A stretch of 64,000 nucleotides of DNA from Acidimicrobiia bacterium (GTDB taxonomy: Bacteria; Actinomycetota; Acidimicrobiia; Spongiisociales; UBA5794). The position numbers and the translations under genes were made by a program. The DNA lies in contig JASJDZ010000024.1 in NCBI GenBank assembly GCA_030065575.1, forward strand, positions 1,717 through 65,716, written 5' to 3'. The notes under the pieces are model-generated. The model saw only the letters and a program-made list of their open reading frames with translations. It did not search any database and had not been told where the DNA came from. Below are positions 10,526-43,004 of the stretch, in pieces; position 1 is the stretch's first letter, and every line of letters begins with the position of its first letter.

Positions 10526-11845
10526 ATGGCAGGCGTCAATCGCCTCTTTGGCACCGATGGTGTGCGCGGCCGCGCTAACACCGATCTCACCGTCGACATG
10601 GCGTTGGATCTAGCGCGGGCGGCCGGAGAGAGCATGGAGGGCCCGGTGGTGGTGGGGCGTGACACCCGCCGCTCCGGTCCGATGTTCACTACCGCGCTGC
10701 ATGCCGGCTTCAGCTCGGTGGGGGTCGACACGATCGACGTCGGAGTGCTGCCGGTTGGGGGCGTGTCCCGGTTGATCCGCCAGCTCGAGGCGCCCTTAGG
10801 CGTGATGGTCAGTGCTTCCCACAATCCTGCGCACGACAACGGCATCAAGTTCCTCGGGCCGAACGGTGGCAAGCTCGATGATGAGCAGGAAGCGATCATC
10901 GAAACGCGATACCGGCGGGGAGCCCCGTGGAAGCACCCGGATGGAGCACTCATCGGCATGCGGGCCAAGATGCCCGAAGCCATCGATCGTTACGTCGACA
11001 ACCTCGCCGAGAACACGGAATACAGTCTCCGCGGGTTGGAGTTCGTTCTCGACTGTGCCAACGGCGCAGCTTTCGAGGCAGCGCCCCGGCTCCTCGAGAA
11101 GCTCGGTGCCTCGGTTGAGGTTCATGCGGCCAGCCCCGATGGCCTGAACATCAACTCGGGCTGCGGTGCGACGACACCCGAGTATGTCGCTGAGTTCGTC
11201 AACGGCCGGGTGGGGCTGGCGTTCGACGGCGATGCTGATCGGTTGATCGCTGTTGATGAGAACGGCGAGGTCGCCAACGGCGACGTGCTCATGGCCATCT
11301 TTGCGAAGCACCTGAAGGATGCCGGCAAGCTGCGCAACAACACGGTGGTCAGCACCGTCATGGCGAATCTGGGCTTCCGAAAGGCTATGGAGCAGCTCGG
11401 CATCGACGTCGAGGAGACCGCGGTAGGCGACCGCTACGTGTACGAGCGGATGCGTCAGGTCAAGGCTGCGCTCGGCGGCGAGCAATCCGGGCACATCATC
11501 TTCTATCGCGGGACCACCGGCGACGGGCTGCGTACTGCGGTGCGGCTGGCCGAAGTGCTTGCTGCTACCGGCCAGCCTCTGGCCGAGCTGCGCAAGATCA
11601 TCACCGAGTACCCGCAGGTTCTGCACAACATCGTCGTTGCCGACAAAGGCAAGCTCGAGGCATCGGAAGCCATCTGGGGTGCAGTCGGCGACGCCGAGCG
11701 GAAACTGGGCGACGACGGGCGAATCCTGGTGCGGGCATCGGGCACCGAGCCTCTCGTGCGGGTGATGGTCGAAGCCCCAACCGAAGAGGTCGCCGAGGAA
11801 GTCGCCGGCGATGTCGGGGCTGTAGTGACTGTCGCCCTCGGGTAG
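10526..11845 (+). CDS. glmM: phosphoglucosamine mutase
   Basis: 439 aa; FGTDGVRG.AN; active-site SASHNP; GDGDADR; GGEQSGH. Confidence 0.95.
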   Translation: MAGVNRLFGTDGVRGRANTDLTVDMALDLARAAGESMEGPVVVGRDTRRSGPMFTTALHAGFSSVGVDTIDVGVLPVGGVSRLIRQLEAPLGVMVSASHNPAHDNGIKFLGPNGGKLDDEQEAIIETRYRRGAPWKHPDGALIGMRAKMPEAIDRYVDNLAENTEYSLRGLEFVLDCANGAAFEAAPRLLEKLGASVEVHAASPDGLNINSGCGATTPEYVAEFVNGRVGLAFDGDADRLIAVDENGEVANGDVLMAIFAKHLKDAGKLRNNTVVSTVMANLGFRKAMEQLGIDVEETAVGDRYVYERMRQVKAALGGEQSGHIIFYRGTTGDGLRTAVRLAEVLAATGQPLAELRKIITEYPQVLHNIVVADKGKLEASEAIWGAVGDAERKLGDDGRILVRASGTEPLVRVMVEAPTEEVAEEVAGDVGAVVTVALG

Positions 11846-40792: not shown

Positions 40793-41758
40793 ATGAACAT
40801 GCTCCGTCGCATGTCTCTGATAGCGCTGGTCCTCGCCTTCGGACTCATCGCCGCCGCCTGTGGTGGCGACGACGACACAACCGATGCAACCCAGGGAGAC
40901 GCGCAGCCGCTGGAGACAACCACCGAGGCTCCGGCCGAGACAACCGAGGCTCCGGCTGAGGAGACCACAACGACCGCAGCTCCGGAATTCGATCTGGTTG
41001 CCGCCGTCCAGGAATACGAAAGCACCATCCCCGACGGGTGGATGAACGTCGGTGACGTCACCTCGTTCAAGGATGCACTTGCTGCCAGCGGTGGTCTGGT
41101 TATCGATGTGCGTCAGCCCAACGAGTACGAAGAGGGTCACATCCCGGGCGCAATCAACATCCCGCTGCGTGAACTCGCCGCCAATGTTGACAAGATCCCG
41201 ACCGACAAGGCCGTCTACGTGTACTGCCAGTCCGGCTTCCGTGCCGGTGTTGCGGTTTCCGCAATCCGCCTGATGGGCTACGACAACGCATTGGCGTACA
41301 AGGACAGCTACCTGGGTTGGACCGAGGCCGGTGAAGAGGTCTCGACCGACCCCGTCGAGGCTGAGGTCTTTGGCGATCCCGGGTTTGCTCCCGAGCTCGT
41401 TGCTGCCGTCGATGACTATCTGTCCACCCTTCCCGATGGATGGGGCATCATCCGTTCCGTCGAGGATGTGCAGGGCGCTCTCGACGCCGGTTCCGTCATC
41501 CTCGATGTCCGCAGCGACGGCGAGTTTGAAGAGGGTCACATCGAAGGTGCGATCCTGACGCCGCTGCGTACCATCTCCACGGCGGAGAACACCGCCAAGA
41601 TCCCGACCGACACGCAGTTCATCATCCACTGCAAGTCTGGTTGGCGGGCGACCATCGCCATGCCGGTAATCGGGGTCCTCGGATTCGATAACTGGAAGGT
41701 CTTCCCCGGCGGCTGGAACGCCTGGGTCGATGCCGGAGCGCCTGTCGTCACCGGCTGA
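40793..41758 (+). CDS. lipoprotein with two catalytic rhodanese domains (sulfurtransferase)
   Basis: Lipobox LIAAAC; two rhodanese domains, each with an active-site loop (CQSGFRAG, CKSGWRAT). Confidence 0.85.
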   Translation: MNMLRRMSLIALVLAFGLIAAACGGDDDTTDATQGDAQPLETTTEAPAETTEAPAEETTTTAAPEFDLVAAVQEYESTIPDGWMNVGDVTSFKDALAASGGLVIDVRQPNEYEEGHIPGAINIPLRELAANVDKIPTDKAVYVYCQSGFRAGVAVSAIRLMGYDNALAYKDSYLGWTEAGEEVSTDPVEAEVFGDPGFAPELVAAVDDYLSTLPDGWGIIRSVEDVQGALDAGSVILDVRSDGEFEEGHIEGAILTPLRTISTAENTAKIPTDTQFIIHCKSGWRATIAMPVIGVLGFDNWKVFPGGWNAWVDAGAPVVTG

Positions 41759-41780
41759 TCTCCAAGATCGGTAACAAGAG

Positions 41781-41810
41781 AGAAGGGGCCGGTTCGCCGG
41801 CCCCTTTCTC
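41781..41810 (+). terminator. Rho-independent terminator after the rhodanese gene
   Basis: GGGGCCGG-UUCG-CCGGCCCC followed by UUUCUC. Confidence 0.85.
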
Positions 41811-41813
41811 GCG

Positions 41814-41857
41814 TCTTGCGTAGCGTGCGGCGTAATGGCGCCGGTATCTACGCCAGA
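41814..41857 (+). repeat. REP-like palindrome, family 1 (TCTTGCGTAG...CTACGCCAGA)
   Basis: Outer arms as in the 27229 copy; inner hairpin CGGCG-TAATGG-CGCCG. Confidence 0.75.
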
Positions 41858-41906
41858 GTGATTCACGAGATTGTCCGAGACCCTCTGCGGATGTAATGTC
41901 TGCCGC

Positions 41907-41945
41907 ATGACATTGAGCAACAGCTGGTGGTGGTCGAGGCGGTAA
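41907..41945 (+). CDS. Trp-rich leader peptide MTLSNSWWWSRR
   Basis: ATG ACA TTG AGC AAC AGC TGG TGG TGG TCG AGG CGG TAA; three consecutive UGG codons, 25 nt before a terminator and 73 nt before the trpS start. Confidence 0.65.
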   Translation: MTLSNSWWWSRR

Positions 41946-41969
41946 CTGCCTTCGCGCGCCATTCAGCAA

Positions 41970-42001
41970 CGCCGGAGGCACCAGCCCCGGCGTTTTCTCT
42001 T
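41970..42001 (+). terminator. intrinsic terminator of the trpS leader (attenuator)
   Basis: CGCCGG-A-GG-CACCAG-CC-CCGGCG followed by UUUUCUCUU, ending 17 nt before the trpS GTG. Confidence 0.7.
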
Positions 42002-42017
42002 GACGAGAGGATCGAAA

Positions 42018-43004
42018 GTGGATAGGCAACGAGTCTTTTCCGGGTTACAGCCCACCGGTAACGTTCATCTGGGCAACTACCTGGGAGCGTTGCGCAACTG
42101 GGTGAAACTGCAGGATTCGTACGACTGCGTCTATTGCGTCGTCGACCTCCACGCGATCACGGTCGACTACGACCCGAAGCAGTTCGAGCAGGACCGCATC
42201 GAGGCGGCCAAGGTGCTGCTGGCTTGCGGCATCGACCCGGACAACTCCCTGTTCTACTTCCAGAGTCAGGTCCCGCAGCACAGCGAACTGGCTTGGATTC
42301 TCGGTTCGATGACGCCGACCGGCGTGCTCAACCGAATGACGCAGTACAAGGACAAGGTCGCCAGAGGTGAGGCAGCCAATCTCGGTCTCTATTCGTACCC
42401 GGTGCTGATGGCCGCTGACATCCTGCTCTATCACGCCAATCTGGTTCCGATTGGTGACGACCAGCGGCAGCACCTCGAGATGACTAGGGATCTTGCGGAG
42501 CGGTTCAACAACCGATTCGGAGACGTCTTCCCGGTTCCGGACGCCCTCATTCCTGAGACGACCGCCCGGGTTATGTCGCTTGCGGACCCGACCGCAAAGA
42601 TGTCCAAGTCGGATCCCAATGAGAAGAGCCGTGTGCTCATCCTCGACTCCCCAGACGTGGTCCGGAAGAAGATCAAGTCGGCGGTGACTGACTCCGATCC
42701 GGAGGTCCGCTTCGATCCCGAGAACAAGCCGGGCATCTCGAACCTGCTCGAGATCATGTCCTCATGCACGGGCGGGACGATCGACGATCTGGTGGGCGAG
42801 TATGCGCACGGCGGCTACGGGAAGTTCAAGGAGGCCGTTGCCGAGGCGGTCATTGCTGAGTTGGCGCCGATTCGGAGCGCCTATCAGAACTATGACGACG
42901 AGGAAGTGGCTCGGGTAATGCGTCGCGGCGCTCTCGACGCCCGTACCCAGGCCGAGGGCTTCCAACAGATGGCCCGCGAAGCCACGGGTCTAGCTGCGAT
43001 CTGA
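42018..43004 (+). CDS. trpS: tryptophan--tRNA ligase
   Basis: VFSG.QPTG..HLGNYLGA (HIGH-type), KMSKS at AKMSKSD; GTG 42018 preceded by GAGAGGA (ORF track begins at TTG 42000, inside the terminator U-tract). Confidence 0.93.
   Translation: MDRQRVFSGLQPTGNVHLGNYLGALRNWVKLQDSYDCVYCVVDLHAITVDYDPKQFEQDRIEAAKVLLACGIDPDNSLFYFQSQVPQHSELAWILGSMTPTGVLNRMTQYKDKVARGEAANLGLYSYPVLMAADILLYHANLVPIGDDQRQHLEMTRDLAERFNNRFGDVFPVPDALIPETTARVMSLADPTAKMSKSDPNEKSRVLILDSPDVVRKKIKSAVTDSDPEVRFDPENKPGISNLLEIMSSCTGGTIDDLVGEYAHGGYGKFKEAVAEAVIAELAPIRSAYQNYDDEEVARVMRRGALDARTQAEGFQQMAREATGLAAI

Follow-up and report, generated by a model that had tools for sequence, protein, structure and literature searches.

A probable ribosome-mediated transcription attenuator in the leader of trpS from Acidimicrobiia

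The trpS locus and its leader

The window (the whole 64-kb stretch of DNA that was analysed) is placed by its TrpS in the class Acidimicrobiia of the Actinomycetota. It carries a 328-codon open reading frame (ORF) starting at GTG 42018 that was identified by Pfam as a class I Trp/Tyr tRNA synthetase and that corresponds to trpS (Table 1). A rhodanese gene lies upstream, and because it possesses a terminator of its own the trpS leader can be treated as a separate intergenic unit. A consensus promoter and terminator scan flagged this rhodanese-side hairpin on the minus strand only. Its T-rich tail there (CTCTCTTGTT) is better than the TTTCTC that comes after it on the plus strand, and the hairpin may act in both directions. 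We also noted that metatranscriptome contigs reached the very high depth of 290–620, rich in variant letters, over the 3′ end of the rhodanese gene (41608–41715), against a depth of about 14 on either side; a conserved domain shared by many strains has probably been cross-mapped here.

The intergenic region contains a 12-codon ORF (ATG ACA TTG AGC AAC AGC TGG TGG TGG TCG AGG CGG TAA) with three consecutive TGG codons, the stop codon of which is separated from the trpS start by 72 nt. A previous sequence-only reading of this DNA had described a 12-codon mini-ORF with three UGG codons at 41925–41933, and all of its positions proved correct when the sequence was read again. The window has a single other TGGTGGTGG, at 10647, which falls within a long ORF and not in its frame. 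No other relevant WW or WWW mini-ORFs were found in the 64-kb window, and in shuffled windows of this size about 0.3 WWW mini-ORFs of up to 30 codons are expected. A composite signature, consisting of TAnnnT, a gap of 6–8 nt, RTG, an ORF of up to 25 codons and a strong hairpin with a T-run, occurs once on both strands of the window, at the trpS leader.

A hexamer resembling a −10 element lies 7 nt before the leader ATG and matches TATAAT at three of six positions. In all 12 loci compared (the window and 11 related loci described below) TAnnnT is situated 6–9 nt ahead of the leader ATG; nine of them have TTGnCn at a −35-like distance, and a tenth has the weaker TTCTCT. We infer a sigma-A-type promoter for the leader, with transcription starting from the A of AUG 41907 or a neighbouring nucleotide. 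No purine-rich Shine-Dalgarno sequence was found ahead of the leader ATG in the 12 loci, and with the −10 element so close to the ATG this points to an mRNA that begins at or next to the AUG. The leader ORF is thus probably translated from a leaderless mRNA, a detail that was absent from the sequence-only reading. In mycobacteria, leaderless genes are recognised by a −10 element in place of a Shine-Dalgarno sequence before the start codon, and initiation needs no more than an AUG or GUG at the 5′ end (PMC4633059). The consensus scan, which used E. coli-type criteria, flagged neither the leader promoter nor the attenuator terminator on the plus strand, because these criteria are too strict for the leader −10 element and for a terminator stem with a bulge. 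A 5′ hairpin at 41894–41915 that appeared in the first fold was rejected; it overlaps the predicted −10 element, lies upstream of the predicted transcription start site and is probably not part of the RNA.

Table 1. Positions of genes, predicted signals and predicted RNA structures at the trpS locus of the window
Feature	Coordinates	Strand	Basis or remark
Upstream rhodanese gene	40793–41758	+	Pfam
Terminator hairpin of upstream rhodanese gene	41783–41806	+	5′ boundary of the trpS unit, outside the attenuator
−35-like hexamer TTGTCC	41871–41876	+	Predicted; TTGnCn 17–18 nt upstream of the −10 in 9/12 loci
−10-like hexamer TAATGT (TAnnnT)	41894–41899	+	7 nt before leader ATG
Leader ORF MTLSNSWWWSRR*	41907–41945	+	ATG 41907–41909, TAA 41943–41945
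Three consecutive Trp codons (putative sensor)	41925–41933	+	Read in sequence; W at codons 7–10 in 12/12 loci
Hairpin 1:2 (anti-antiterminator)	41923–41967	+	−24.3 kcal/mol, z −3.8
Antiterminator 5′ arm, region 2 core UGCCUUCG-C-GCG	41947–41958	+	Within conserved CGCGCGCC motif
Intrinsic terminator hairpin (regions 3:4)	41968–41994	+	−19.6 kcal/mol, z −4.7
Antiterminator 3′ arm CGC-CGGAGGCA	41970–41980	+	Overlaps terminator 5′ arm
U-tract UUUUCUCUU	41993–42001	+	Read in sequence
trpS Shine-Dalgarno GAGAGGA	42005–42011	+	Read in sequence; GAGAGGATCGAC kept in close relatives
trpS, tryptophanyl-tRNA synthetase	42018–43004	+	GTG start; Pfam PF00579 (tRNA-synt_1b), E 3.9e-81

Alternative RNA structures and their conservation in related loci

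Taken from its AUG through the U-tract, the leader RNA folds into two hairpins at −45.9 kcal/mol (z −3.8), where the mean energy of shuffled sequences is already −32 kcal/mol. In the first of these, hairpin 1:2, region 2 is paired with the Trp codons and with the three sense codons that end the ORF, and the stop codon occupies the apical loop. The small hairpin around the stop codon that had been proposed from the letters (GGCGG at 41938–41942, UAA, CUGCC at 41946–41950) is real, extends to GAGGCGG/CUGCCUU and forms the tip of this larger structure. The second is the terminator, in which 41968–41979 pairs with 41984–41994 around the loop ACCA, with a bulged A at 41976; none of 200 shuffled sequences folded as well. 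Both sequence and folding bear out the earlier claim of a terminator whose U-tract ends at 42001, 17 nt before the trpS GTG at 42018.

An antiterminator of 11 bp (−16.1 kcal/mol, z −2.6) is formed by UGCCUUCG and GCG (41947–41954 and 41956–41958) with CGC and CGGAGGCA (41970–41980) when folding is confined to the RNA from 41946 to 41983, that is, with region 1 held by a ribosome and region 4 not yet made. The previously suggested pairing of CCUUCG (41949–41954) with CGGAGG (41973–41978) forms within this larger helix, so that folding of the leader, which had been recommended as a check, yielded the terminator, hairpin 1:2 and the antiterminator alike. As the 3′ arm of the antiterminator overlaps the 5′ arm of the terminator, the two helices are mutually exclusive. 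Masking of the ribosome footprint in equilibrium folds left the terminator ahead in the window and in close relatives. Given that the terminator is favoured at equilibrium (−19.6 versus −16.1 kcal/mol), the switch would have to be kinetic, in line with the accepted view of E. coli trpL, and because equilibrium masked folds are unable to show such a switch, truncated co-transcriptional folds were used instead. The first fold also paired the U-tract with the trpS Shine-Dalgarno sequence (UCUCUU/GAGAGG, 41995–42011). Considered as a second, translational layer of control, this hairpin was rejected, being not conserved and no better than shuffled sequences, and it is probably due to chance.

We compared nine genome and 14 metagenome loci of the Acidimicrobiia type, with TrpS at least about 58% identical. 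An orthologous leader was present in 11 further loci (L081, L082, L083, L001, L002, L084, L089, L005, L007, L009 and L092), all from Acidimicrobiia metagenome-assembled genomes with TrpS 59–92% identical, and the search for a conserved W-rich mini-ORF in relatives that the sequence-only reading had called for was thereby answered in its favour. The common layout comprises an ORF of 11–13 codons, the conserved CGCGCGCC segment, the antiterminator and the terminator. The leader peptides of the window and its relatives are MTLSNSWWWSRR, MAMTQSWWRWLQR, MALTNVWWWLRR, MTMTSNWWWAKQ, MTSTLYWWCSQR, MAMAHSWWCSQR, MNANGRWWWRS, MSVNRLWQVWTG, MVQSGRLWWWNPH, MTDRSRTWWWAFR, MDAVLQWWWLSEI and MTTRFANWWWQA. 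They have two or three Trp at positions 7–10 (WWW, WWC, WWRW or W..W) and no other conserved residue; L001 and L002 have WWC, and L089 has only two Trp codons, which are separated. The distance from the ATG to the first TGG is either 18 or 21 nt in all 12 loci, and since its length changes by multiples of three the reading frame is kept. About half of the Acidimicrobiia-type trpS loci compared lack the element (for example L003, L004, L006, L008 and L085–L088). One of these, L003, has four tandem ACGGACT heptamers directly upstream of the trpS Shine-Dalgarno sequence, at about 2935–2965.

The spacing of the leader features is also preserved. The last Trp codon lies 9–15 nt before the leader stop in the 12 loci, and in 11 of them, L089 being without the motif, 5–8 nt separate the stop codon from the conserved CG.GCG core of region 2 that follows it. 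In the window the 5′ arm of the antiterminator begins 2 nt past the stop. Taking the general size of a ribosome footprint, this stop-to-region 2 spacing means that a terminating ribosome would cover the 5′ arm whereas one stalled on the UGG codons would not. In every locus the terminator stem is followed by a T-run of 4–7. In the RNA made before region 3, between 7 and 15 of the 15 nucleotides that follow the stop are paired with the ORF in each of the 12 loci, and the Trp codons take part in pairing with region 2 in ten. WWW is kept in L005 and L092 though unpaired with region 2, and so is not kept only for RNA pairing. The gene upstream encodes a rhodanese in the window, L002 and L082; in L001, L081 and L083 it appears, from the flanking sequence, to be divergent. 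With the leader present beside differing upstream neighbours, the element follows trpS and not the gene upstream.

Covariation was counted on an alignment running from the leader stop to the U-tract, because a MAFFT alignment of the whole leader misaligned the ORF region of distant loci; for the same reason the 1:2 helix was scored in each sequence separately. For the antiterminator, 87% of cells were paired over the 12 sequences, compared with 30–58% in controls with a slid partner, and three pairs showed compensatory changes, a number equalled in 36 of 500 shuffles. These comprised a change from C-G to A-U in L005 and from U-A to G-C in L009 and L092; a further G-C for C-G in L007, visible by hand, was hidden by an alignment gap. 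The antiterminator also formed in all 12 loci in folds truncated before region 4. For the terminator, 88% of cells were paired on the same alignment, with two compensatory pairs (41 of 500 shuffles reached this number), and at the base of the stem A-U is replaced by C-G in L005 and L007. The consensus structure returned by RNAalifold was the lower stem of the terminator. The covariation is modest, with few compensatory pairs among 12 related sequences, and thus supports the predicted structures without doing so overwhelmingly.

Proposed attenuation and competing explanations

Searches for known regulatory elements gave no match to the leader. A scan of 41600–42200 against Rfam with E values up to 10 found no T-box, no Trp_leader (RF00513) and no other leader family, so that the leader is not assignable to a curated family. 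No T-box (RF00230) reached the gathering score in the 13 Acidimicrobiia-type loci scanned, versus T-boxes of 124–146 bits upstream of trpS in all three Bacillaceae loci scanned (L021, L039 and L073). TRAP sites were sought as 9–11 (G/U)AG triplets spaced by 2–3 nt, and no TRAP-like array of even five or more triplets was present in 41801–42020 or elsewhere in the 64-kb window.

We consider it likely, from the sequence comparisons, that the trpS leader is a classical ribosome-mediated transcription attenuator responding to the supply of charged tRNA-Trp. This was also the interpretation of the sequence-only reading and it gains support from the comparison, the hallmarks being kept in 12 Acidimicrobiia-type loci: the reading frame of the Trp codons is maintained as the remainder of the peptide drifts, and both helices show compensatory pairing.

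The model that follows is inferred as regards the site and leaderless nature of the start, the translation of the ORF and ribosome stalling on it, and both termination and the physiological response in the cell. Transcription from the −35 (41871–41876) and −10 (41894–41899) elements would begin exactly at, or beside, the A of AUG 41907, and a 70S ribosome would probably initiate on the 5′ AUG without a Shine-Dalgarno sequence. When Trp-tRNA-Trp is plentiful the ribosome would cross the three UGG codons and reach the UAA at 41943, its footprint covering 41947–41958; after its release the ORF would pair again with region 2 in the 41923–41967 hairpin. With the ribosome either at the stop or released, region 3 would be free for region 4, the terminator (41968–41994) and U-tract would form, and RNA polymerase would stop some 20 nt short of trpS. 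If Trp starvation, low TrpRS activity or a TrpRS inhibitor makes charged tRNA-Trp scarce, the ribosome would stall on the UGG run (41925–41933) and hold region 1. The naked 41947–41958 segment would then capture 41970–41980 as it is transcribed, pre-empting the terminator and allowing read-through into trpS. The outcome would be homeostatic feedback on TrpRS activity, which is the job of T-boxes in Bacillota.

Several other explanations were weighed against this model. The leader might be a switch that binds a ligand, a tRNA or a protein, such as a riboswitch or a T-box-like or TRAP-like element, with the small ORF incidental and untranslated. Translation of the ORF is itself a prediction, and UGGUGG also pairs with a conserved CGCCA in ten of the 12 loci, which could make its conservation partly structural. 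However, neither a T-box nor any other Rfam family matched at E values up to 10, the (G/U)AG triplet array is absent, all 12 loci preserve the ATG, its reading frame, the place of the stop and the distance to the −10 element, with drift of the peptide confined to residues other than Trp, and L005 and L092 retain WWW in the absence of pairing with region 2; we therefore regard a binding switch as unlikely. It is a distinctly unlikely account, too, that the mini-ORF controls translation of trpS, by reinitiation, coupling or unmasking of the Shine-Dalgarno sequence, and leaves transcription alone. An Actinomycetota precedent does act on a downstream ribosome-binding site (bioRxiv 10.1101/834739), and the 41995–42011 hairpin of the first fold joined the U-tract to the Shine-Dalgarno sequence. 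Yet that hairpin is neither conserved nor better than shuffles, a canonical GC-rich stem is directly followed by a T-run in every locus, the alternative helix competes with the terminator stem and not with the Shine-Dalgarno sequence, and a stop codon 72 nt from the trpS start is too far away for coupling.

Leaderless small ORFs are common in Actinomycetota (PMC4633059), and the leader could accordingly be an independent gene for a small Trp-rich peptide with its own terminator, or the hairpin a constitutive insulator terminator, in either case without regulation by Trp. This is very improbable: the peptide is unconserved except for W, the conserved antiterminator would be left unexplained, the element was found only beside trpS, and trpS, as an essential gene, would be silenced by a constitutive terminator lying 17 nt ahead of it with no intervening promoter. 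GC-rich sequence does fold readily, as the shuffle mean of −32 kcal/mol attests, and the ORF and hairpins might have come together by chance, but against this stand the z-scores of −3.8 and −4.7, the expectation of about 0.3 WWW mini-ORFs per shuffled window and the retention of the element by 11 further loci whose TrpS is as little as 59% identical. Conservation effectively refutes a chance juxtaposition.

Transcript evidence came from one metatranscriptome RNA run, the assembled contigs of which have a depth of about 4 and in which 5′ and 3′ ends are not readable. A contig of a near-identical strain spans 41949–42191 and extends into trpS, so read-through RNA exists; in this single run no RNA contig covered 41770–41931. 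The pattern is compatible with the attenuation model, to which it lends slight weight.

Relation to known attenuators and distribution

The closest relatives of the proposed mechanism are in Streptomyces. In 2005, leader-peptide attenuators were predicted ahead of trpS and leuS in Streptomyces and compared with gamma-proteobacterial pheST, the classical synthetase operon under leader-peptide attenuation; the S. avermitilis trpS2 candidate has a short ORF with one or more Trp codons followed by alternative hairpins (PMC1262725). These trpS leaders resemble the one described here in phylum, regulated gene, short Trp ORF and alternative hairpins. RNA-seq of S. lividans revealed leaderless leaders before trpS, leuS, alaS, thrS and trpE (PMC8079986). 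Transcription of S. lividans trpL2-trpS is leaderless, as we predict for the window leader, and TrpL2 (MMTRTCTQLWRAA) has one Trp, with no U-rich tract found past its hairpins (PMC8079986). The Acidimicrobiia leaders, in contrast, have two or three mostly consecutive Trp codons and a canonical U-tract terminator, and are in that sense more canonical. The title of Vecchione and Sello (2010) reports ribosome-mediated transcriptional attenuation of a Streptomyces TrpRS gene (S. coelicolor trpRS1), and describes that gene as an auxiliary, antibiotic-resistant paralogue. The contrast drawn by the sequence-only reading, that a T-box would be the more familiar Gram-positive solution for a synthetase gene, is real: the Bacillaceae trpS loci scanned have T-boxes and the Acidimicrobiia loci none. 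In view of these precedents, however, attenuation of a synthetase gene by a leader peptide is not unusual for Actinomycetota.

Other systems share some of these features. As in E. coli trpL (RF00513), the regulatory codons lie in segment 1, the stop just before segment 2, and a 2:3 antiterminator competes with a 3:4 terminator. The window leader differs from trpL and from pheM-pheST in having no Rfam match, in being probably leaderless instead of Shine-Dalgarno-led and in belonging to another phylum, and whereas trpL controls the trp biosynthetic operon, it would control trpS. The Streptomyces trpE leader TrpL1 (MFAHSTRNWWWTAHPAAH) is likewise leaderless, with a WWW run and hairpins followed by a U-rich stretch (PMC8079986), but it controls a biosynthetic gene and encodes a longer peptide of 18 aa. 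The 64-kb window showed no trp biosynthetic gene preceded by a Trp-run leader. In mycobacterial polycysteine small ORFs, too, a leaderless short ORF senses an amino acid by stalling on a codon run, but these act on translation, unmasking a downstream ribosome-binding site (bioRxiv 10.1101/834739). In the window leader, by comparison, the helix is predicted to compete with an intrinsic terminator, and masking of the Shine-Dalgarno sequence is not supported. The trpS T-box of Bacillota has the same input, charged versus uncharged tRNA-Trp, and the same output, a terminator or an antiterminator before trpS. The T-box binds tRNA directly and needs no translation.

The mechanism is therefore one already known, and the trpS leader leaves the understanding of attenuation unchanged. 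The trpS leader belongs to an unstudied class of bacteria and to no Rfam family, and a full-text literature search found nothing on attenuators in Acidimicrobiia. It supplies a well-supported cis-regulatory annotation for a class known almost only from metagenomes, and indicates that, in Actinomycetota, aminoacyl-tRNA synthetase genes under leader-peptide attenuation are found well beyond Streptomyces. The 12 aligned leaders could form the basis of a covariance model, and the probable leaderless start offers a compact case for the coupling of translation from a 5′-terminal AUG to RNA polymerase. We tentatively raise the further possibility that this is a distinct, Acidimicrobiia-specific RNA family, of an origin independent of the Streptomyces leaders, in which a leaderless Trp-run mini-ORF governs the housekeeping (and possibly only) trpS. 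Such a family would fill the niche occupied by the T-box in Bacillota and would provide a compact natural model of leaderless 70S initiation synchronised with transcription.

Beyond the Acidimicrobiia, no WW mini-ORF was found upstream of trpS in any of about 140 loci. The best 80 TrpS relatives in each collection that fell outside the class belonged to Clostridia, Bacilli, Opitutae and a few Proteobacteria, at 47–57% identity. There were no other Actinomycetota among the best 80 relatives in each collection (L010–L080 and L095–L160), an absence that could come from the pattern-based search or from the history of this particular trpS. Two loci labelled as Verrucomicrobia, L010 (about 2800–2960) and L096 (about 1350–1470), have about ten tandem CTAGAA hexamers before trpS, followed by an imperfect inverted copy (GTTTTAGTTCTAG...), and the array with its copy would form a long repeat hairpin.
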